From contig VMHB01000003.1 in assembly GCA_007378985.1 (NCBI GenBank), positions 28,283-92,282 of the forward strand: a stretch of DNA of 64,000 bases, written 5' to 3'. The notes under the pieces are model-generated. The model saw only the letters and a list, made by a program, of their open reading frames with translations, ran no database searches and was not told the origin of the DNA. A program made the position numbers and the translations under genes. Each line of letters starts with the position of its first letter. Position 1 is the first letter of the stretch. This DNA comes from Parcubacteria group bacterium Greene0714_7. Its GTDB lineage: Bacteria; Patescibacteriota; Minisyncoccia; Phycocordibacterales; Phycocordibacteraceae. Below are positions 1,450-64,000 of the stretch, in pieces.

Positions 1450-2442
1450 TTGGTGCATTCATGGGGTAGCATGGAGGAAATGTTACACAGCATATTGACG
1501 ACAAAGCCTTCTAAAGATTATGAACTTCTTGACTCTGGTTGGGAAGAGAAGCTCGAAAGGTATGGGAACATAGTGCTGGCTCGGCCTGACCCGCAGGCAT
1601 TGTGGGAGAAGCGTTTAGGAGATGAGGAATGGAAGCGAGCAGACGCATGGTATGAACGCAAAGCAAAGGGTGGCGACTGGCATTTTAAAAAGATTGTCTC
1701 TCCTAACACTCGTCCTTCGAGTACTCAGGACATGAGTGTTTCTGCTTCGCAGATTGGAAGAAACACTGAGCAGTCAGTGTTTCTTCCCAAAGAATGGCAG
1801 ATTGAACTCGGTGGGCTGAATTTTATTATTCGCCCTACTTCTTTCAAGCACACCGGCCTTTTCCCAGAGCAGGTTCCTAACTGGCAATGGGTTCAACAGA
1901 AGTTGGCAGAAAGCAGTGAGCAGAAAGCAGTCAAAGTTTTGAATCTTTTCGCCTATACCGGAGGGGCAACGCTCGCTGCCGCAAAAGCTGGTGCGCAAGT
2001 TACACATGTTGATGCTTCAAAAACTGCAATCGAATGGGCAAAGGCGAATGCAAAACTTTCTGGTTTGAATGAAAAACCAATTCGTTGGGTTACGGAGGAT
2101 GTAATGAAGTTTGTTGAGAGGGAAGTGAAACGAAAGAATACATATGACGCAATTATTATGGATCCTCCTGCTTTTGGTCATGGACCAAAAGATGAATTGT
2201 GGAAAATTGAGGAGAACTTTCTAATGCTTATGAAGCTCTGTAAAGCACTTCTGTCAGACAAGCCTATATTCATACTGGTGAGCGGATACGCTGCGGGGTA
2301 TTCATCGCTTGCGTTTGCACACAACCTAGAATCAATTATTGAAAAAAATGGCGGAGGTGTGGAAGTAGGAGAATTAACTATTGAAGAGTCGAGTAGCGGA
2401 CGTCTATTGCCTGCAGGAATTTTTGCGAGGTGGTCTAATTAA
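1450..2442 (+). CDS. class I SAM-dependent RNA methyltransferase (RlmI/YccW-like)
   Basis: LNLFAYTGG SAM-binding motif and an IIMDPPAFG (DPPxF) catalytic motif. Confidence 0.7.
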   Translation: MVHSWGSMEEMLHSILTTKPSKDYELLDSGWEEKLERYGNIVLARPDPQALWEKRLGDEEWKRADAWYERKAKGGDWHFKKIVSPNTRPSSTQDMSVSASQIGRNTEQSVFLPKEWQIELGGLNFIIRPTSFKHTGLFPEQVPNWQWVQQKLAESSEQKAVKVLNLFAYTGGATLAAAKAGAQVTHVDASKTAIEWAKANAKLSGLNEKPIRWVTEDVMKFVEREVKRKNTYDAIIMDPPAFGHGPKDELWKIEENFLMLMKLCKALLSDKPIFILVSGYAAGYSSLAFAHNLESIIEKNGGGVEVGELTIEESSSGRLLPAGIFARWSN

Positions 2443-2540
2443 AACGTTGATTCACGATACAAGATTCATGATTCAAGAATAAACTCCCAAGCTAGAAATC
2501 CTGAATCCTGAATCCTGATTCTTGAATCTATTTATTTTAT

Positions 2541-3944
2541 TTAAAAAAGTTTTGCGGTTGGGAGCGAATGAATCTCGCTAGTACGTTCTTTAATATCTAT
2601 TGGATATTCGCCAGTGAAGCATGAAGTGCAGAACATGTCGGGATGTAAGCCTGTTGCACGAATCAAGCCGTCATATGAAAGAAAGTGTAATCGTGTTGCA
2701 CCAAGGTATTCTCGTATTTCTTCAGGTGTTTTTTGTGCGCCAATGAGCTCTTTTTGGGTTGGTGTATCAATACCGTAAAAATCAGGAAATCGTACAGGAG
2801 GTGAGCTGACGAGGAAGTTTACTTCTTTCGCTCCTGCTTCGAAAAGCATTTGCACAATTTGCCTAGAAGTTGTCCCGCGAACTATTGAGTCATCTATGAC
2901 CACAACCTTCTTCCCTTTGATGACCTCTGGTAGTGGGGTGAGTTTTATTTTTACGCCCTGCTCACGAATATGTTGTTCTGGTTGAATGAATGTGCGGTGT
3001 ATATAGCGATTTTTTATGAGCCCTGTTTCAAGCGGAATCCCCAATGCTTGAGAGTAGCCTATCGCAACGGGCATTGCTGTTTCTGGAACTGGAATAATCA
3101 CATCAGCGTCTAATGGAAACTCTTTCGCAAGTTCAATACCAAAGTTTTTACGAACACCATAGACTGACTTGCCAAGAAGTACTGAGTCTGGCCGTGCAAA
3201 ATACACGAATTCGAATATATCAAGCTTTTGAATGCCCATCGCAATTTGCACAGAACGCATACCGCTCTCGTTTACTATAATCATTTCTCCCGGGGCTACA
3301 TCACGGAGTTCCTCGGCTCCAATGGGATGGAATGCGCATGTTTCCGATGAAAAAACAAACCCACCATTTAAGGTACCTATAGAGAGTGGACGAATACCGT
3401 AATTATCTCTGATGGCGACGAGGTTATGTTTATCCATTAATAGAATAGAAAATGCCCCTGTAAGGAGGGGAAATGTTTTTGGGACAGCGTCTTCTAGAGT
3501 AGAACCTTCGCGCATATGGACCGCAATGGCCTCTGCAATCATTTCAGAGTCAGAAAGTGTTTTGTAGGCAATGTTTTTTGAAGCAAGGAAATTCTCAAGA
3601 AGAGTAGTTGAAGGAATGTTGCCGTTATGTACTAAGGTGAGACCAACATCTTCTATATGTGTAGGTTGCGAGTGTTTGAGCTGTGAAGATTTTGAAGTTG
3701 AGTAGCGGTTATGTCCAACAGCAATGTGACCTACGAGGCGTTGAATGTCTTTTTCGGCAAATGCTTGAGCGACGAGGCCCATTTTTTTATGACAGAAAAT
3801 AGTTTCTCCGTTTGATGTGGCAATCCCAGAGCTTTCTTGACCTCGATGCTGTAAGGCGTAGAGTCCGAAGAAGGTGAGACGCGCAGCCTCCATTCCTTTC
3901 CCATAAACTCCAAAAACGCCACACTTTTCTCCTAAGTCAGACAT
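2541..3944 (-). CDS. purF: amidophosphoribosyltransferase
   Basis: N-terminal Cys nucleophile (MSDLGEKCGVFGVYG) and the PRPP-binding motif VVVIDDSIVRGTTS. Confidence 0.9.
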   Translation of the reverse strand: MSDLGEKCGVFGVYGKGMEAARLTFFGLYALQHRGQESSGIATSNGETIFCHKKMGLVAQAFAEKDIQRLVGHIAVGHNRYSTSKSSQLKHSQPTHIEDVGLTLVHNGNIPSTTLLENFLASKNIAYKTLSDSEMIAEAIAVHMREGSTLEDAVPKTFPLLTGAFSILLMDKHNLVAIRDNYGIRPLSIGTLNGGFVFSSETCAFHPIGAEELRDVAPGEMIIVNESGMRSVQIAMGIQKLDIFEFVYFARPDSVLLGKSVYGVRKNFGIELAKEFPLDADVIIPVPETAMPVAIGYSQALGIPLETGLIKNRYIHRTFIQPEQHIREQGVKIKLTPLPEVIKGKKVVVIDDSIVRGTTSRQIVQMLFEAGAKEVNFLVSSPPVRFPDFYGIDTPTQKELIGAQKTPEEIREYLGATRLHFLSYDGLIRATGLHPDMFCTSCFTGEYPIDIKERTSEIHSLPTAKLF

Positions 3945-11680: not shown

Positions 11681-11954
11681 GAGGGAAGGGAGGTAGGCGC
11701 ACGGGCTGGCTCTGGCGTAAATGCCTATTTTGGGTAGAATAGTGAGACATTCTGTGGTTAGCATTATTGCTTAGTTCCACAGAATTAAAGTTGTTTAACA
11801 ACATATTCCGCCGAGCGCATGGTTTTAAGAAAAACCATGCTTTCTCCGACGGCACTCGGACAATATGAAAGCATGCTTTCATATTGCTCCTCGCTTGTCG
11901 TAGGAGCTCAATTCTTGAGCTCCGGCGGAAACAAAGTGGGTAGAGCCCACGTAT

Positions 11955-12246
11955 TCCGCGGTAGCTCAATGGTAGAGCAGCTCCCTGTCCAAAGGCAGCC
12001 TTCCCGAGGAATCGGGATTGAAAAACGAGGTGAATTCGGGGAAACCCTAATCCTATAAAAGGATGGGCAATCCCGAGCCAAGCTCTGACGATTTGTTGGA
12101 GAAGGCGTAGAGACTATCCCGAAAGGGAGTAGGCCGAAAGGTCGAAGCGCCTCGCATCCAGATCGGATGATGATATAGTCCACGCCCTTCGTAATAGGGG
12201 ATCACGTGTAAGGAGTTGGTTGTAGGTTCGAGTCCTACCCGCGGAG
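11955..12246 (+). tRNA. tRNA-Asn(GUU) interrupted by a group I intron (intron 11989-12208). Exons are 11955-11988 and 12209-12246, and the spliced anticodon loop is CUGUUAA.
   Basis: 5' exon: acceptor TCCGCGG, D-arm GCTC/AATGGTA/GAGC, anticodon stem GCTCC, loop CTGT, then the intron. 3' exon: TAA, GGAGT, variable loop TGGTT, T-arm GTAGG-TTCGAGT-CCTAC, acceptor CCGCGGA, discriminator G. The intron has a P1 in which exon CUGU pairs with GGCAG (U35.G), GAAA tetraloops (GGGGAAACCC, TCCCGAAAGGGA, GGCCGAAAGGTC), the R element AGAGACTA, the S element GATATAGTCC, and a terminal G. Confidence 0.75.
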
Positions 12247-12254
12247 CTTGATAG

Positions 12255-12285
12255 AAAAAACTCTCCACTTTGGGGAGTTTTTTGT
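12255..12285 (+). terminator. rho-independent terminator after tRNA-Asn (CTCTCC...GGGGAG followed by a T-run)
   Basis: A hairpin with a T7 run and an upstream A-run, so it looks bidirectional. Confidence 0.6.
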
Positions 12286-12323
12286 ATCACTAGCACTGCG
12301 TGTGTATGGACTCGAACCGCGGG

Positions 12324-12377
12324 CCGCAGGGAGCGAAGAGCGACCGTAGGTTTCGAGCATAGCAATGCGAGAGGCGA
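12324..12377 (+). repeat. conserved element X copy A (CCGCAGGGAGCGAAGAGCGACCGTAGGTTTCGAG...GAGAGGCGA), followed by the tRNA-Asn 3'-end fragment GAGTCCTACCCGCGGAGC and a terminator
   Basis: Near-identical 34-nt core plus a similar 22-nt tail at 63026-63081. Both copies are flanked by tRNA-derived fragments. Confidence 0.5.
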
Positions 12378-12574
12378 GTCCTACCCGCGGAGCCGAGAGA
12401 GAAAATGAATCCCGCCTTGTTGGCGGGTTTTTCCTCAAGATGACTGGTCACCATTTCTCGAGAACACTTAGTATTTTACGATGAAGGAGTACAATACTTA
12501 GTGACTCGTGACCGAGTCTACCCGCGGGGCTAGGTGGATTGGTGTAATCAACTTATCTCAGTTAAAAATAATCT

Positions 12575-13579
12575 ATGAATCTTAAATACGAAATAAAGCC
12601 AGAGAACCTAAAGGTTCTTGAAATAAAACAAATAACTTTAAACAAAGATAAGTTTGGAGCGTTGACTTTTGATAAAGCATATCCAAAACTTCACGAGATC
12701 AGGAAGATGTTGGTTGAGTTCGAAGAACTTGGCTATGTTGATTTGCTTACGAGCGATGAAGTTAACGAGGTTAATAGTCTCAAGAGCCAACTACTGCATT
12801 ATGTCCAAAGAGTCAACGACTTGAATCCGGAGACAGATGCCACTTTCAACATAAATGTTAGAGATAGTTTGGAGAATGAGATAGATAACTTCTGCAAGGG
12901 TGCAACTAAACAACTTCGTGCAAACTTAGTTTTCTTAAGACAGGAGGCTGCTCGGAAGAGTACGGATCAACAATCTCTTGCTGAAGAACAAAAAGCTGCG
13001 ACTCAAGCTCGAAAACAGACGGAGGAGACGTTAAATCTACTGCAACAGAAGCTAGAGAAGCTCAACGAACGTGAACAACAGCTTGAAACTACATCAGGCA
13101 AGGTGGGTGCTAAAGCACTTGCAATTCATTTCAATACAGAGACCATTCTATATCAGGGTCGCGCGGACGGATGGTTTAAGGCTGTTGTAATTTCGTATTT
13201 ACTGTTGGTCGTGCTTACTTTAGGAATTGTGGCTTACTACACTTGGTGGCACCAAGGGGGTTGGGCAGCATTAACGTGGCAAGAAGGAACGGCAAAGTTA
13301 GCACTTCTTGCTGTCTCTTGGTACGCAGTCTCTTTCTTCATTCGTAGTTATAACGTTAATTCTCATTTGGCAGCGGTGAACCGTCACCGCACTGCCGTTG
13401 CAGGAACACTTGAAGATTTTCTAGCTTCAAATCCATCAGCTACGGGAGAAATGTTACAAAATGGAACTGATGCCATGTTTAAACACGCAGCAATAGGATT
13501 CATTACTAAGGCGGAAAAAGACTCGGGTAATCCTCTATTGGAGATTGTAAATAAGATCACAAATCCGAAACCCGATTAG
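12575..13579 (+). CDS. hypothetical coiled-coil membrane protein (N-terminal ~190-aa coiled-coil-rich region, two TM helices, C-terminal domain)
   Basis: No recognisable catalytic motif. Lower GC than flanking genes. Located in the tRNA-linked islet. Confidence 0.6.
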   Translation: MNLKYEIKPENLKVLEIKQITLNKDKFGALTFDKAYPKLHEIRKMLVEFEELGYVDLLTSDEVNEVNSLKSQLLHYVQRVNDLNPETDATFNINVRDSLENEIDNFCKGATKQLRANLVFLRQEAARKSTDQQSLAEEQKAATQARKQTEETLNLLQQKLEKLNEREQQLETTSGKVGAKALAIHFNTETILYQGRADGWFKAVVISYLLLVVLTLGIVAYYTWWHQGGWAALTWQEGTAKLALLAVSWYAVSFFIRSYNVNSHLAAVNRHRTAVAGTLEDFLASNPSATGEMLQNGTDAMFKHAAIGFITKAEKDSGNPLLEIVNKITNPKPD

Positions 13580-13672
13580 TGTTCAAACTGACCAACCTCC
13601 ACCCAAAACGTTCCGTCAAAATTTCAAAAAAATCCTTGTGGGGCTTGAAAGTAGAAAGTTCACGACCTGACT

Positions 13673-13810
13673 GGGGAGTCGAGAGAGAAAATGAATCCCG
13701 CCTTGTTGGCGGGTTTTTCATTTTTCTTGAGGCGACTGCGGGAAAGCTTTGCGCAAGAAACAAAGCCTACAAGCGGAGCATGGACCCGAAATCGGGACTG
13801 TCCCCATTTC
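13673..13810 (+). repeat. left copy of a ~130-bp repeat bracketing the R-M module (GGGGAGTCGAGAGAGAAAATGAATCCCGCCTTGTTGGCGGGTTTTT...CAAGCGGAGC...CCCGAAATCGGGACTG), which includes a terminator hairpin
   Basis: Matches 16376-16610 and, in part, 12375-12431. Confidence 0.6.
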
Positions 13811-13932
13811 CATTCTCTCAACCTTTTGAGAGAACAGTATCAACGGAGTTACCGTATTTAGTTTGAAAATCATTTTCCGTTTTCATCTCATCTGTTATCC
13901 ACATTATTGCATAGATAGCACTCTGGGTAAAT

Positions 13933-15129
13933 ATGCTATCATATAGTCACAGTAAGAACATTGATGTGAACAAACAACTTTTAGTACGAAACATCCCAAC
14001 AGAGGTCGGCGACTGGATTGAGCAAGAGCGCAAGCAGCGCAATATGTCGCAACAGGAGTTTGTACTTTCAATGCTCAAAGTCGCATCAGAAGAAAAAGAA
14101 AAAACGCTTCCATTTCATACCGAGCGTCTTTTTCCGAAACCGAACGTTCCAACTACTTTTACATTTATTGACCTCTTTGCTGGGATTGGAGGTTTCAGAA
14201 TAGCTCTTGAAAAACTTGGTGGTGAATGTGTTTATACCTCTGAATGGGATAAGTATTCCCAGAAAACTTACAAGGCGTGGTTTGGAGAGATGCCTGCTGG
14301 TGACATCAGAAAAGTGAAGCCAGCAGACATTCCTAATCACGATGTATTGGCGGCTGGTTTTCCTTGTCAGCCATTTTCGCTCGCTGGAGTTTCAAAGAAA
14401 AAGAGTTTGGGTTTGGAGCACGGTTTCAAAGATAAAAATCAGGGCAATCTTTTCTTCTATCTCGCCACGATTATTCAGGCAAAAAAACCATCAGTACTTT
14501 TCTTGGAGAACGTAAAAAATCTGCAATCACACGATGGAGGTAAAACGTGGGCTGTCATAATGAACACACTGAAAGACCTTGGATATATCACATTTACTCG
14601 TGTATATGATGCAGCGCATTGGGTTCCACAGCATCGTGAGCGCATTTTTATTATCGCTTTCAAGAAGTCAATGTTTGGAGACAATCCTGATTTCACATTC
14701 CCAGAACCACCGCCACTCAAGTCAAAGCTCAAGGAGATTTTGGAGAAAAAGCCTGACACGAAGTACACACTGACAAACCATTTGTGGCAGTATTTGCAAA
14801 ACTATGCCCGGCGTCATCGGGAAAAGGGAAATGGTTTTGGTTTTGGTATTGCTGACCCGAATGGCATTACCAGAACGTTGAGCGCCCGTTATTACAAAGA
14901 TGGTTCTGAAATCCTGATTGAACAGAAGGAGGGCAAGTCACCACGCCGTCTAACACCGCAGGAGTGCGCCAAACTGATGGGTTTTCCAAAAGAGTGCAAA
15001 GTAGTAGTATCTGATACACAAGCGTACAGGCAATTTGGCAATGCGGTGGTCGTGCCAGCAGTTGAGGCAACGGCAGCCCAAATGGTCAAAACTTTCCTTG
15101 CAAAGAAAGCCAAGCGCAAAGCAAAATAA
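13933..15129 (+). CDS. DNA (cytosine-5)-methyltransferase, Dcm/M.EcoRII family, with an N-terminal ~55-aa extension that may be a regulatory HTH
   Basis: Motif I FIDLFAGIGG, motif IV GFPCQPFSLAG, motif VI ENV, motif VIII QHRER and motif X QFGNAV. Long stretches such as TRTLSARYYKDGSEILI and RRLTPQECAKLMGF closely resemble M.EcoRII/Dcm (CCWGG), as recalled from memory. Confidence 0.85.
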   Translation: MLSYSHSKNIDVNKQLLVRNIPTEVGDWIEQERKQRNMSQQEFVLSMLKVASEEKEKTLPFHTERLFPKPNVPTTFTFIDLFAGIGGFRIALEKLGGECVYTSEWDKYSQKTYKAWFGEMPAGDIRKVKPADIPNHDVLAAGFPCQPFSLAGVSKKKSLGLEHGFKDKNQGNLFFYLATIIQAKKPSVLFLENVKNLQSHDGGKTWAVIMNTLKDLGYITFTRVYDAAHWVPQHRERIFIIAFKKSMFGDNPDFTFPEPPPLKSKLKEILEKKPDTKYTLTNHLWQYLQNYARRHREKGNGFGFGIADPNGITRTLSARYYKDGSEILIEQKEGKSPRRLTPQECAKLMGFPKECKVVVSDTQAYRQFGNAVVVPAVEATAAQMVKTFLAKKAKRKAK

Positions 15130-15130
15130 A

Positions 15131-16294
15131 ATGGCATCACCACTTACCGAAAAAGCAATCAGTGAAGCGGTACAGCACGGAAACGCGCTGTTGAAGTTCA
15201 TCTCACCAAACGACACAGGTGCAACGGGAGCGCATCAATCGGGCTTTTACTTGCCTAAATCTGCTTGGGAGATTTTTACTCCTAACGGACCAACAAAAGG
15301 CGAAAACTCCAAGCATCCCGTCAATATTGAATGGCACGATGGTAGAGTCACAGAGTCAGTAGTAACTTGGTACGGTCAAGGTACTCGTTCAGAGTATCGT
15401 CTAACTCGCTTTGGTAAGGATTTTCCATTTCTTATACCTGATACAGTCGGAGACTTGTTGATGCTGGTCCCAACAAGTAGAAACGATTTCAACGCATACG
15501 TTTTTGACCAAGAAGATGACATTGAAGAAGTTATGGCTGCTTTGGGTGTACAGCCATTTGAACATTGGTCTATTTACAAAAACGGTATTGCACAAATTGA
15601 AGATACTGATGCGTGTTTGGAAAAACAATTTCAAGAGTTCGCAAAAGCGCTTGATAAGTTTCCAAAGACCGATGTGTTTTCAAACGCAACACACAAAATG
15701 CTTGAGCACTGTGTTCGTGAACTTGCAAAACAACCTTTTGATACAAAACTAATGGAGTATTACTCAACAGAATACAAACTTTTTCAGGTAGTTGAGAGAC
15801 AAATCTGCCAGACGGAAATCAGCCGACTTTTCAAGGACGTTGATGATTTTCTACACACCGCAGCAAGTATTATGAACCGACGTAAATCACGAGCAGGACA
15901 TTCGCTTGAGAACCACGTTGATAGCATATTTACCGAAGCAAATCTGGCTCACGAAATGCAACCGCGAGTAGATGGCAAACCAGACATTATCTTCCCAAGC
16001 AAAGAAGCATATTTGGACCCTTTATATCCAACAGAGAAACTCATTGTGATGGGAGTAAAAACAACTTGCAAAGATAGATGGCGACAGGTTTTGAATGAAG
16101 GTAAACGAGTCAAAGGAAAGCATATCCTTACCCTCCAACCAAGTATTTCTTCAAATCAACTAACTGAAATGTACGAAGCAGGAGTGACGCTGGTTGTGCC
16201 ACGCAAACTCCAAGCGGATTATCCGAAAGACAGCCCGCTAACCATCCTTACTGTTGAAGATTTCATTGAGCAAGCGAAGAAACTGATTGCTTAA
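15131..16294 (+). CDS. EcoRII-like type IIE restriction endonuclease (N-terminal EcoRII-N/B3-like effector domain plus a putative PD-(D/E)xK C-terminal domain)
   Basis: The N-terminus FISPNDTGATGAHQSGFYLP matches the EcoRII N-domain signature (..SANDTGATGGHQVGLYIP), as recalled from memory. The ATG lies 1 nt after the MTase stop. The C-terminal region GKPDIIFP...IVMGVKTTCK is a candidate catalytic core. The ORF-track start at 15035 overlaps the MTase gene and is probably spurious. Confidence 0.65.
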   Translation: MASPLTEKAISEAVQHGNALLKFISPNDTGATGAHQSGFYLPKSAWEIFTPNGPTKGENSKHPVNIEWHDGRVTESVVTWYGQGTRSEYRLTRFGKDFPFLIPDTVGDLLMLVPTSRNDFNAYVFDQEDDIEEVMAALGVQPFEHWSIYKNGIAQIEDTDACLEKQFQEFAKALDKFPKTDVFSNATHKMLEHCVRELAKQPFDTKLMEYYSTEYKLFQVVERQICQTEISRLFKDVDDFLHTAASIMNRRKSRAGHSLENHVDSIFTEANLAHEMQPRVDGKPDIIFPSKEAYLDPLYPTEKLIVMGVKTTCKDRWRQVLNEGKRVKGKHILTLQPSISSNQLTEMYEAGVTLVVPRKLQADYPKDSPLTILTVEDFIEQAKKLIA

Positions 16295-16350
16295 ACGACG
16301 GCTGACTCGGAAAAGTCAGGGATATAGAAGTAACAGCTTTCATTCATAAA

Positions 16351-16375
16351 GTAGGTTCGAGTCCTACCCGCGGAG
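16351..16375 (+). repeat. 25-bp direct repeat of the tRNA-Asn 3' end (GTAGGTTCGAGTCCTACCCGCGGAG), the att-like right boundary of the islet
   Basis: Identical to 12222-12246. Confidence 0.7.
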
Positions 16376-16610
16376 CCGAGAGAGAAAATGAATCCCGCCT
16401 TGTTGGCGGGTTTTTCTGTGCAACTAACACGGCTTGCAAGCGGAGCATCGCCCTACATAGGGCGTTTTGTATTTTCTTAGACTGCGACCGTGGGGAAGCT
16501 TTTGTGTAGCTCAACAAAAGCTTGCAAGCGGAGCCGAGAAGTTGTCGTAGGGAAGCCATGTGCAACTAACACGGCTTGCAAGCGGAGCTAGGTCCGAAAT
16601 CGTGACTAAT
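16376..16610 (+). repeat. right copy of the ~130-bp repeat plus an array of degenerate CAAGCGGAGC-ending fragments and small hairpins
   Basis: Terminator AAAATGAATCCCGCCTTGTTGGCGGGTTTTT. TGTGCAACTAACACGGCTTGCAAGCGGAGC occurs twice (16418 and 16558). GGTCCGAAATCGTGACT matches 13787. Confidence 0.55.
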
Positions 16611-16647
16611 AATATTTTTTTCCAATATAGGCTATACTCTTATTGAT

Positions 16648-17154
16648 ATGAAAAAAGTAGAGGTAATCTTGGAAAAGCTTATATTCGCAAGCCGTTGGCT
16701 ACAAGCACCACTCTATGTTGGGTTGGTTTTGGGCGGTGTCCTGTATTCATACAAATTTTTCACCGAACTCCTTCACTTATTTATTGAGATAGGTCATATA
16801 TCTGAGTCGGTATTAATGCTCGGCATACTTACCCTTATTGACTTCACTATGGTAGCCAACCTTCTTATTATGGTTATCATCGGTGGTTACTCAACCTTCG
16901 TAAGTCGACTTGAAATTGACACTCATAAAGACAAGCCTGAGTGGTTGTCAAAGGTAGATGCGGGAACGCTTAAAGTTAAATTAGCAGGTGCGCTCGTTGG
17001 CATATCAGGAATCCACTTGTTGCAAATTTTTATAAACATCGAAAATCAAAATCTCAATAATGTGATGTGGCAAGTTATCATTCATGTCGTATTCCTTTTC
17101 TCTTCGATAATGCTTGCTTATTCGGAAAAGATTTTACATAGTAGGCACTCATAA
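16648..17154 (+). CDS. UPF0114/YqhA family membrane protein
   Basis: N-terminus KLIFASRWLQAPLYVGLVLGG is typical of YqhA. Confidence 0.65.
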   Translation: MKKVEVILEKLIFASRWLQAPLYVGLVLGGVLYSYKFFTELLHLFIEIGHISESVLMLGILTLIDFTMVANLLIMVIIGGYSTFVSRLEIDTHKDKPEWLSKVDAGTLKVKLAGALVGISGIHLLQIFINIENQNLNNVMWQVIIHVVFLFSSIMLAYSEKILHSRHS

Positions 17155-62687: not shown

Positions 62688-62759
62688 GGCCCTATCGTCT
62701 AACGGTTAGGACACATCCTTCTCAAGGATGGAATCGGGGTTCGATTCCCCGTGGGGTCA
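62688..62759 (+). tRNA. tRNA-Glu(CUC)
   Basis: Cloverleaf: acceptor GGCCCTA/TGGGGTC, D-arm GTCT-AACGGTTA-GGAC, anticodon stem CATCC/GGATG with loop TTCTCAA, T-arm CGGGG-TTCGATT-CCCCG, discriminator A. CCA is not encoded. Confidence 0.8.
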
Positions 62760-62800
62760 CAAACTAGAAAACAAGCCCTTAGTCAGGCTTTTTTCAGTTT

Positions 62801-62846
62801 GTGACCCCAAGCACGAGAATGGTTTCTCGTGCGACGGGGAATCGAA
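62801..62846 (-). repeat. inverted partial copy of the tRNA-Glu 3' end (TTCGATTCCCCGT...GGGGTCAC), interrupted by a 25-nt perfect hairpin (GCACGAGAA..TTCTCGTGC)
   Basis: It is the reverse complement of tRNA-Glu positions ~54-73 plus the downstream ACAAACT, forming a large palindrome around the tRNA terminator. Confidence 0.6.
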
Positions 62847-63025
62847 GCGCGGAACGATGTTTTTCGTTGCGAAAAACCGTGAGCGGGGCCTGCGACCGAG
62901 CCGAACATGGGTGAGGTGAGAGTTGTAGGCAATTCCCGTGGGGACTGGGAATCGAACTGCGGGCTCCCGATTTCTTAGGTTGTAATCAACCTCTAGAAAT
63001 CGCAGTGCACTAAATTTATTGTTGC

Positions 63026-63081
63026 CCGCAGGGAGCGAAGAGCGACCGTAGGTTTCGAGTCGTAGCAACGACGAGAGGCGA
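63026..63081 (+). repeat. conserved element X copy B
   Basis: CCGCAGGGAGCGAAGAGCGACCGTAGGTTTCGAG is identical to 12324-12357. The tail TCGTAGCAACGACGAGAGGCGA resembles CATAGCAATGCGAGAGGCGA. It is followed by a tRNA-Glu-like fragment, ATTCCCCGTTGTGC. Confidence 0.5.
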
Positions 63082-63171
63082 TTCCCCGTTGTGCTTAAGA
63101 AATGGTGGCTGACCCCCCCATTTCAGCATTTCCCATTGACTCAAACCTATTTCTATTGGATTCTGTAAGTA

Positions 63172-64000
63172 ATGGTTATCATCTCCACCAAAGGAGAATA
63201 TCGAAAGGAAAATACAAGCACTAAAGAAGTCTTTTACTACAGGGATCCAAAAGAGGGAATTGATGTTAAATCACGCGAAGTCTATAAGCGTAAACCTCTA
63301 GAGATTCATTTTCCTTTTGATCGTAAAGGAGGGCAGAAATATAAATTTATCGATAGAGTGGAATTTCATGGAATTTCCCCAACAGCTGTACCTGGGGTTT
63401 TTACTGCCACGAATTTCGGATTAGGTTTTACTAAAAATCTTAGTCCGGCAATCTATCAACTTGATAAAGTGCCTCGAATTACAAAAGTAATTATTTCTCC
63501 TACCGAAAGTTCAAAAATTCAAGGTGATGCAGCAATTTTCAATACAATTGATCTAAATGAAATTTTTAAATGGATTAAACCTCTCAAAGAGTCCCAGTCT
63601 GCAGAACTAAAGAAAACCGCCAACAATTCTTTAGCAAAGATATACCCTTCCAGTTTTACTAAAAACATAGCACGTTACACGAAAGGGGAGTTGAGTCTTT
63701 TCATTAAAAATAAACAAGTTGAGCCCGCTCAGCTGTCTGACGAAGATGTAGGAAATGCCTTGAAGCTGATCCCTGAAAAAGTGAGTGTTGAAAGCATACT
63801 CTACAAAGCAGAGGAAAAAATTAATTTCATTAAACTGAAATCTGTTAGAAAGCGTTTTGAGAAATTAATCAATCAGAAAACGCAATCAAAATCGTTTGAG
63901 GAAAGGTGTCAGAAATTCTTTTCTCAGAATAGTTGGATATTTTCTAATATTCTTTCTGTCCCCGTAGCTTTGTATTTGAAAAAAGCTTACGTGGGAGGAA
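63172..64000 (+). CDS. hypothetical protein, partial (runs off the window end), AT-rich; possible DUF4263/Shedu-like N-terminal region
   Basis: ATG at 63172 with an open frame to 64000 (276+ aa). It is absent from the ORF track because no stop lies within the window. Near the end, ERCQKFFSQNSWIFS resembles the E..Q.F...NPWLFG segment that precedes the nuclease core in DUF4263 proteins; this is a weak pattern match. Confidence 0.5.
   Translation, partial: MVIISTKGEYRKENTSTKEVFYYRDPKEGIDVKSREVYKRKPLEIHFPFDRKGGQKYKFIDRVEFHGISPTAVPGVFTATNFGLGFTKNLSPAIYQLDKVPRITKVIISPTESSKIQGDAAIFNTIDLNEIFKWIKPLKESQSAELKKTANNSLAKIYPSSFTKNIARYTKGELSLFIKNKQVEPAQLSDEDVGNALKLIPEKVSVESILYKAEEKINFIKLKSVRKRFEKLINQKTQSKSFEERCQKFFSQNSWIFSNILSVPVALYLKKAYVGG

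Follow-up and report, generated by a model that had tools for sequence, protein, structure and literature searches.

A strain-variable restriction-modification block among repeated tRNA-Asn 3' ends in a Patescibacteria genome

In Dehalococcoides, islands stand in tandem at ssrA, inserted in the T loop, with CcrB-like large serine recombinases (LSRs) and with the integrase gene on the reverse strand by the left attachment site, attL (PMC3146451). Some of these islands have no integrase and were read as cis-mobilizable elements, or CIMEs (PMC3146451); CIMEs and site-specific accretion have been described elsewhere (Pavlovic 2004; Bellanger 2011; reviewed in PMC5704250). Restriction-modification (R-M) genes are also known to insert with a long target duplication (Nobusato 2000; Furuta, Abe and Kobayashi 2010, PMC2853133), for which the criteria are that R and M lie inside, that the insert is below 20 kb, that the duplication is longer than 30 bp and single-copy when the site is empty, and that there is no mobility gene (PMC2853133). 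Here we compare these systems with a 4-kb strain-variable block that carries an R-M pair and a membrane protein 3' of tRNA-Asn in an uncultured Patescibacteria bacterium. The genomes of Patescibacteria (the Candidate Phyla Radiation, CPR) are tiny, and the ways in which this group gains and reshuffles defence genes are poorly known. We call the 64 kb of the Patescibacteria/Parcubacteria metagenome-assembled genome that we analyzed (contig VMHB01000003.1 of Parcubacteria group bacterium Greene0714_7) the window, and L-numbers refer to comparison loci and contigs.

On balance we think it probable that the block is part of a decayed, non-autonomous, CIME-like tandem array at a tRNA integration hotspot, and that it varies by way of its long repeats. 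The parts of the array, with the membrane protein reading frame named ORF334 (open reading frame, ORF), are as follows.

11955..12247, plus strand: tRNA-Asn(GUU), exon 1 at 11955-11988 and exon 2 at 12209-12247, split in the anticodon after GU
12222..12247, plus strand: F0, the functional tRNA 3' end (T arm and acceptor 3' strand), the reference repeat copy
12248..12393, plus strand: X mini-insertion, 146 nt (covariance model match at 12294-12401, 110 bits)
12375..12433, plus strand: R_a, the left long direct repeat, made of F1, CGAGAGAG and the terminator term2 (100% identical to 16358-16416)
12434..16416, plus strand: strain-variable unit of 3,983 nt, running from the ORF334 module through R_b and the R-M pair to the right repeat copy (not in L018 or L013)
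12497..12527, plus strand: F2, a palindrome GACTCG..CGAGTC and then a degenerate tRNA-Asn 3' end, TACCCGCGGGGC, 5' of ORF334
13645..13802, plus strand: R_b, a ~85% copy of the whole tRNA-trailer module, before the R-M pair
16351..16376, plus strand: F4, an exact copy of the 26-nt tRNA-Asn 3' end
16351..16608, plus strand: R_c, the right trailer-module copy, before yqhA
16648..17154, plus strand: yqhA (UPF0114), the first conserved gene past the array, syntenic in L018, L011, L012 and L013

A related genome without the cargo, for which the preliminary description had proposed to look, was found in L018 (Candidatus Paceibacterota Gw_Eff_bin_311), the nearest species representative at ~96% nucleotide identity. 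Its order is an intron-less tRNA-Asn, a terminator, X, one 59-nt repeat with one hairpin unit, and yqhA, and it is without window positions 12434-16416 and 16417-16549. The empty site had been predicted to run from tRNA-Asn directly into yqhA, but L018 retains the terminator, X and one repeat copy between the two. Another strain, L013, is also without the R-M genes and has the repeat once. Since L018 and L013 are both without the cargo and both keep one repeat copy, the block is a true presence/absence polymorphism. The variable unit is bounded by the long repeat and not by the functional tRNA end. The islet had first been delimited as 12247-16375; the unit that varies is instead 12434-16416, set by a 59-nt repeat (119 nt in L014, L015, L017 and L011). 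In L013, a 234-bp segment encoding a 47-aa Cys-rich peptide is found at 53-290 in place of the X core. This cassette too ends in a tRNA-3'-like sequence exactly before (C)AAGAGAG-term2.

The 26-nt tRNA 3' end GTAGGTTCGAGTCCTACCCGCGGAGC occurs exactly at 12222-12247 and 16351-16376 (26 of 26 positions, 0 expected from shuffles), with no other copy in the 64 kb; it had been noticed as a 25-nt repeat, which is right as to exactness but falls short of the 26 nt. In all, 4.2 kb hold the tRNA-Asn 3' end five times in direct orientation: F0 at 12222, which is functional, F1 at 12375 (19/19), F2 at 12508 (~17/19), F3 at 13661, which is decayed, and F4 at 16351 (26/26). The 59-nt repeat is 100% identical between 12375-12433 and 16358-16416, and a third copy lies at 13661-13719 with 86% identity. 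Three exact copies of the terminator 38-mer GAGAGAGAAAATGAATCCCGCCTTGTTGGCGGGTTTTT are all at the tRNA-Asn locus, with none elsewhere in the 64 kb. The four exact copies of CAAGCGGAGC start at 13770, 16437, 16525 and 16579, and there is no further exact copy in the window; CCGAAATCG(G/T)GACT is found at 13786 and 16594. The repeats at the tRNA-Asn locus are far above chance.

When aligned, these repeats resolve into one module of ~150 nt that is present in three copies, R_a before ORF334, R_b before the R-M pair and R_c before yqhA. The order within the module is a tRNA-Asn 3' fragment, CGAGAGAG, term2, a hairpin (U) ending in GCAAGCGGAGC, and (N)GG(N)CCGAAATCGNGACT. The stems of the U hairpins vary in sequence, the GCAAGCGGAGC after the stem is invariant, and junctions recur exactly past it. 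R_b is made of a decayed tRNA 3' end, term2 at 100%, a hairpin unit U1* and CCGAAATCGGGACTG. R_c continues from its tRNA end with term2 (16378-16415), U1 (16417-16446, the 5' part missing in the window), term3 (16447-16470), U2 (16471-16534), U3 (16535-16588) and TAGGTCCGAAATCGTGACT (16589-16607). It holds an internal expansion of 142 nt between 39-nt repeats, which is present in the window, L011, L012 and L017 and absent from L013 and L018, each with a single U unit. Nested repeats of ~130 bp had been described around the R-M genes; they are present, but the right copy, given as 16376-16610, is one unit plus this internal expansion. The whole array in the window reads tRNA, X mini-element, ORF334 module, methylase and EcoRII module, yqhA.

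F4 starts with GTAGGTT, the true T-stem sequence, and F1 has the X-derived CGAGAGG at the same positions. Because the GTAGGTT of F4 matches the genuine T stem, the right repeat descends from a real tRNA-Asn 3' end and not from the left copy, which counts for an att (attachment site) origin, as it is what one expects of a right attachment site (attR). The repeats could have turned out to be generic terminators, and did not: they are confined to the locus in the window and absent from all other loci compared. Exact-pattern scans for term2 gave 0 matches in IMG/VR and 0 in the JGI metagenomes. We ruled out the U hairpins as generic repeats of the REP (repetitive extragenic palindrome) kind, as there are none in the rest of the window.

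In four mutually independent short-read assemblies (L014, L015, L017, L011) the repeat is 119 nt long and consists of the 19-nt tRNA end, the CGAGAGAG-terminator and a 60-nt U1. Compared with these, the window is missing 65 nt at the left junction (12433/12434) and 30 nt at the right one (16416/16417). Both gaps lie in U1 and begin right after term2; they may be true variation or may come from a collapse of the assembly at this place. The assembly ERZ27284376 has the locus in three contigs (L001, L014, L011) that are broken at the repeats with exact 119-nt overlaps, and L014 holds the variable unit as a separate contig with identical 119-nt ends. The overlaps and the identical ends have the k-mer length of the assembler and are no evidence for or against a circle.

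The same tRNA is used by serine recombinases in sibling strains. In L007 and L008, whose upstream flank is 99.4% identical, tRNA-Asn has no intron and runs into CGAGAG, after which comes a convergent gene; its product has matches to LSRs in the recombinase and zinc-ribbon domains (homologues with PF07508/PF13408, E down to 3e-62). In L007 this frame enters tRNA-Asn antisense, and we found the same arrangement at other tRNAs, the LSR frame in each case running antisense into the abutting tRNA 3' end.

L007 785-1462, antisense to the tRNA: LSR frame entering tRNA-Asn
L029 10001-11158, antisense to the tRNA: LSR frame entering tRNA-Leu
L030 10001-10975, antisense to the tRNA: LSR frame entering tRNA-Asn
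L034 12265-13728, antisense to the tRNA: LSR frame entering tRNA-Trp (also in L035)

C-terminal peptides of LSRs imply that frames also overlap with tRNA-Glu and with an intron-containing tRNA-Asn in other Patescibacteria. Several of the LSR copies have no N-terminal resolvase domain and appear to have decayed in place. Around the decayed LSR genes of L029 and L030, a search out to 10 kb turned up no displaced tRNA fragments, and an attempt to place the LSR crossover by comparing the tRNA-Trp trailers of L029 and L034 failed because the sequences are too diverged. L037 has yet another occupant at the equivalent tRNA-Asn site: the space from the tRNA side to X is taken up by a large element of conjugative type (TrwB, Replic_Relax), which is bounded by a separate degenerate tRNA fragment, not by X.

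Three genes make up the cargo of the window.

12575..13579, plus strand: ORF334, 334 aa, a predicted all-alpha protein with a long coiled coil and two transmembrane helices
13933..15129, plus strand: C5 cytosine DNA methyltransferase with a 75-aa N-terminal extension (PF00145, 1.1e-86; PADLOC type II methyltransferase)
15131..16294, plus strand: EcoRII-type restriction endonuclease (PF09019, EcoRII-C, 7e-58; PF09217, EcoRII-N, 2.5e-22)

ORF334 had been taken for a coiled-coil membrane protein of no known family, and this description stands: with its two predicted transmembrane helices it matches no Pfam family and no PHROGs family, it has at most weak coiled-coil matches in PADLOC, and two of its distant homologues reach sub-threshold scores for NNH7. 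A profile search of the PDB gave SNARE/IncA-type coiled coils alone (E >= 0.016). The AlphaFold2 model is all-alpha (pLDDT 77, pTM 0.39), and Foldseek found nothing for it in the PDB at E <= 0.001. A protein recorded for Parcubacteria group bacterium Greene0714_7 matches ORF334 at 100% identity. There are 59 homologues, and most of those with an organism name are from candidate-phyla (Patescibacteria-type) bacteria. In L034/L035 the homologue is in an island between tRNA-Trp and an intact 487-aa LSR, adjoining SRA-HNH and Mrr-type restriction genes. It is near a 447-aa LSR and a ParB-methylase in L031, and it adjoins a LexA-methylase fusion in L032. The module in L031 is flanked by its own imperfect tRNA-like direct repeat of ~50 nt (76% identity), which contains AGGTTCGAGACCT. 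The counterpart of F2 upstream of the L031 homologue has AGGTTCGAGACCT, and the downstream repeat is homologous to window 13585-13680, F3 included. In L031 and L034/L035, ORF334 homologues are thus cargo of intact LSR islands, beside restriction or methylase genes. In L032, ~5 kb from the ORF334 homologue, there is also a diversity-generating retroelement (bAvd and reverse transcriptase, 1603-3016).

As first proposed, the other two genes are an R-M pair of the EcoRII/Dcm type, with matches to PF09217, PF09019 and PF00145 far above the cut-offs. The pair has the same N- and C-terminal domains as described EcoRII/Dcm-type type II systems, an adjacent C5 methylase and the order M then R; it differs in the uncharacterised 75-aa extension of the methylase, which takes up 13933-14157, before the first C5-methyltransferase motif, and matches no Pfam family. 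Some EcoRII/SsoII-type methylases have an N-terminal DNA-binding or autoregulatory domain, and by analogy the extension may be such a domain. Family membership suggests a CCWGG specificity. CCWGG occurs at 0.46 of the Markov expectation in the window, with zero sites in 12000-17000, and at 0.41 in the islet-free L018, and GGWCC and CCSGG are likewise rare; because the depletion is equally strong in L018, it says nothing about long residence of the R-M pair. Searches of phage and plasmid collections returned methylase-motif similarity alone. With an EcoRII-type enzyme, a C5 methylase and a coiled-coil membrane protein, the cargo is predicted to be defensive.

The array reading starts from what we observed at the locus and its relatives, namely how the repeats are built, the empty site, what else occupies this tRNA and the associations of the cargo. 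At the end of each array module there is a copy of the tRNA-Asn 3' end and then a copy of the tRNA's own trailer. We infer that a serine recombinase made the junctions, and the following order of events. LSR elements would have integrated at the tRNA-Asn 3' end, each one restoring the tRNA and pushing the old 3' end distally. The recombinase modules would then have been lost, leaving att-flanked, cis-mobilizable, CIME-like cargo blocks. Finally, the 4-kb block would be gained or lost whole through recombination between the identical repeats of 59-119 nt, by a recombinase in trans or by RecA-type homologous recombination after DNA uptake.

The likeness to the Dehalococcoides ssrA islands is close: a tRNA-like gene is targeted at its 3' end or T loop, the boundaries have short direct repeats of the 3' end, a reverse-strand recombinase gene lies beside attL (here in L007, L030 and L034), and islands are in tandem, some without an integration module. 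Unlike those islands, the locus has tRNA-Asn as its target and not transfer-messenger RNA (tmRNA), the islet is only 4 kb, the repeats of 59-119 nt include ~100 nt of trailer, and the available sequence has no recombinase; we do not claim orthology of the recombinases described here to DsiB/CcrB. Like a CIME, the block is one of several elements lined up at a target gene's 3' end, and related autonomous elements occur at the same site, with an LSR gene abutting tRNA-Asn in L007/L008; the block has no mobility genes and is flanked by repeats that may or may not serve as att sites. It departs from a CIME in that the repeats are much longer than att cores, and its neighbour X is 146 nt of non-coding DNA rather than an integrative and conjugative (ICE) or integrative and mobilizable (IME) element. 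Against the usual marks of a tRNA-targeted island, we found the distal repeat of the tRNA end, no inner recombinase and no compositional difference; the empty site with one repeat copy exists in L018 and L013, but its boundary is behind X.

A number of observations weigh against the array reading. The islet has three real ORFs, none of which is a recombinase, and tblastn with LSR homologues found no match in the whole window, which bears out the earlier remark that no integrase is present. The repeat of 59-119 nt is far longer than an LSR att site, ~100 nt of it being tRNA trailer, and its left copy is behind X instead of at the functional tRNA end. The GC check that had been proposed showed no difference between the islet (0.38-0.48) and the flanks (0.39-0.47). 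Homologues of the methylase-EcoRII pair, with 81-95% identity, are found paired at unrelated chromosomal loci (L041, L043, L045), where there are no flanking repeats and no similarity beyond the coding regions; from this we conclude that the pair can move by other routes. Insertion of the block cannot be told from its repeat-mediated deletion, and the long identical contig ends of L014 prove nothing about excision. The first proposal of a decayed or non-autonomous integrative element holds for its variability, its lack of an integrase, its place at a tRNA hotspot and its look of insertions that accumulated or decayed, but not for a simple att-type boundary at the tRNA end. In the same way, the att-like signature is there as a direct repeat of the tRNA end, but an extension of ~100 nt into the trailer is atypical of a simple att site.

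If the array reading is right, cargo outlasts the loss of recombinases at the tRNA-Asn site, which serves as a landing pad in Patescibacteria seen here at strain resolution. Its alternative occupants are a serine-recombinase element, the islet with the R-M pair and the membrane protein, a small-ORF cassette and a 146-nt non-coding element. The att-like sequences and recombinase candidates are now named for tests; an attR in the L007 element in which a tRNA-like arm is followed by AGAAAATGAATCCC would favour a site-specific origin of the junctions between the F copies and CGAGAGAG. The islet itself is ordinary and leaves current concepts unchanged.

A somewhat unlikely account, which we nonetheless take seriously, is that the R-M genes came in with a long target duplication, by homologous recombination alone and with no site-specific recombinase. 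A tRNA-trailer target of ~120-150 nt would have been duplicated on either side, or else DNA with one copy of the segment would have recombined, Campbell-like or by double crossover, after natural uptake; the tRNA fragments would be a mere part of the duplicated target. The locus has what all four criteria of Furuta et al. name (PMC2853133), including the R-M pair, a duplicated target of more than 30 bp of which the empty genome has one copy, and the lack of a mobility gene. Such an origin fits well with repeats that are 100% identical over 59-119 nt and reach well past the tRNA, with a left copy outside the functional tRNA and with R_a, R_b and R_c alignments that span ~150 nt, through CCGAAATCGNGACT; a homologue of the competence protein DprA is encoded at one related Patescibacteria locus. 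What it does not explain well is the tRNA end. The duplicated segment begins with 19-26 nt of tRNA 3' end, and the right copy has 7 more tRNA-matching nt that are missing from the left, so it is no simple duplicate of the left target. Every module, including the diverged ones and the L013 cassette, has a tRNA-3'-like end exactly before CGAGAGAG, and LSR elements demonstrably use the same tRNA in sibling strains. The locus also differs from the described insertions in its extra non-R-M gene and in an internal third, diverged target copy, and the R-M homologues elsewhere come without long duplications.

The next account turns on X, which the preliminary description had called a degenerate tRNA fragment. 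X consists of a bidirectional terminator, term1 (12249-12289), an inverted copy of the tRNA 3' end (12290-12315), a conserved core (12312-12377) and F1, the 19-nt direct copy of the tRNA 3' end (12375-12393). It is absent from L007/L008 (99.4% identical), where the tRNA runs straight into CGAGAG, and present in the islet-free L018. From its absence in L007/L008 it follows that X is a 146-nt insertion in its own right, in which 19 nt of the tRNA end are duplicated, and not merely a decayed fragment; it is separate from the cargo block and would be the older of the two. It also belongs to a conserved family found behind other tRNAs, of which we have seven copies.

12248-12393 in the window, at tRNA-Asn
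62934-63105 in the window, at tRNA-Glu, with a 62-nt insert
L018 10916-11023, at tRNA-Asn
L039 4613-4726 (L039/L040), at tRNA-Asn of another species
L037 8122-8235
L038 8312-8425, at tRNA-Arg
L036 474-587

The core of ~70 nt is nearly invariant in the seven copies and has the pattern TCGAACYGCGGGYCGCAGGGAGCGAAGAGCGACCGTAGGTTTCG.G-hairpin-CG.GAGGCGA. Every copy has the layout tRNA, bidirectional terminator, inverted tRNA T loop/3' end, core, direct tRNA 3' end, the last of which begins in the T loop, and the arms track the species-specific sequence of the cognate tRNA (Asn, Glu or Arg). In a three-way-junction fold, 91% of cells are paired, compared with 31-37% when partners are slid. Covariation favours this fold and is modest, with 4 pairs changed on both sides, 3 of them in one hairpin with an AGCA loop. 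X has no space for a promoter of its own. All Rfam scores were at chance level and below the gathering scores, an exact-pattern scan of IMG/VR for the core gave 0 matches, and the covariance model recovered only the copies it was built from in 384 kb of comparison sequence. We rejected X as a tRNA or tmRNA gene (no ARAGORN call), as the best-scoring Rfam family, the c-di-GMP-II-GCG riboswitch (20.4 bits, gathering score 47.9), and as a guide RNA of TnpB/IscB or a bridge RNA of IS110 (the gene for a cognate protein is not found nearby, and the core has just ~60-70 nt).

We keep three readings of X side by side: it may be an integrative element in miniature, a fossil end left by larger elements, or an RNA with a defined structure. 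As a conserved, tRNA-matched sequence it would be either a new miniature integrative element or a new structured RNA, and it is the novel item at this locus most worth pursuing. Elements of the IMEX/CTX-phi kind at dif reportedly lack an integrase, stand in tandem and have an attP of inverted target-like arms with a spacer. X has the same layout of two inverted arms with a spacer as the CTX-phi attP, which is an analogy only: its target is a tRNA T arm and not dif, and a role of Xer or of single-stranded DNA is not evidenced. We consider it unlikely, though worth stating, that X represents an undescribed family of ~146-nt miniature mobile elements targeting tRNAs which, with the hairpins ending in GCAAGCGGAGC, marks a platform where a recombinase acting in trans stacks integrase-less defence cassettes in Patescibacteria. 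On insertion into the T loop, a copy would restore the 3' end of the tRNA and bring its bidirectional terminator, and two inverted tRNA-matched arms would flank the conserved three-way-junction core.

As an explanation of the block, we regard such a new recombination platform as very doubtful. X and U would be folded-DNA or RNA sites at which a host or trans-acting recombinase captures promoter-less defence cassettes, much as at the hairpin attP of CTX/IMEX or at integron attC. It would account for the inverted tRNA-matched arms and structured spacer of X behind Asn, Glu and Arg tRNAs in several genomes, for U hairpins that vary around an invariant GCAAGCGGAGC with junctions recurring exactly after it, and for an array that has no integrase and the same module before each cassette. 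However, just seven copies of X are known and their covariation is limited to the 4 pairs, U units are known from the tRNA-Asn locus only, the large element of L037 is not bounded by X, and no recombinase candidate was identified. Reading the junctions as fossil att sites is simpler and covers most of the features.

That the islet was mis-joined at a repeat from elsewhere or from another organism, by assembly or binning, is highly improbable, since each junction is present in at least one independent assembly (the stretch from EcoRII over F4 and the trailer to yqhA is contiguous in L017, that from the end of U1 into the ORF334 module in L014 and L015, and that from DUF1003 over the tRNA and X to the repeat in L001), the contigs overlap exactly and the base composition is that of the flanks, even though ERZ27284376 is split into three contigs at the repeats and the window junctions by term2 differ from the four assemblies by the 65-nt and 30-nt deletions.

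The tRNA gene at the 12247 boundary is genuine, as had been claimed, and is interrupted by an intron.

11989..12208, plus strand: group I intron of 220 nt, strain-polymorphic (Rfam RF00028)

ARAGORN did not call tRNA-Asn in the window because the group I intron splits the anticodon. The intron-less alleles at L018 10795-10867 and L007 811-884 are both called as tRNA-Asn(GTT). The intron scores 64.6 bits against RF00028 (gathering score 50, E = 4.6e-15) and is absent from L007, L008 and L018 (96-99% identical), in which BLAST joins 11988 directly to 12209; it is a group I intron in a tRNA anticodon loop. An antisense peptide of the LSR homologue P0002 points to an intron-containing tRNA-Asn in another Patescibacteria genome.

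A second tRNA-linked islet may be present at 62688-64000. There, a long palindrome built from the 3' end of tRNA-Glu(CTC) and a terminator comes after this tRNA, and then come more direct and inverted tRNA-Glu fragments and the second X copy of the window. An ORF without a Pfam family begins at 63172 and runs past the end of the window.

Just 5' of tRNA-Asn, a 194-bp segment (11759-11952) is absent from L003, L005, L007 and L008. It includes a stretch that resembles the 5' part of the tRNA (AGCTCAATTCTTGAGC vs AGCTCAATGGTAGAGC). In L006, the spacer 5' of the tRNA instead has a 116-aa ORF with a weak, sub-threshold match to an HNH endonuclease.

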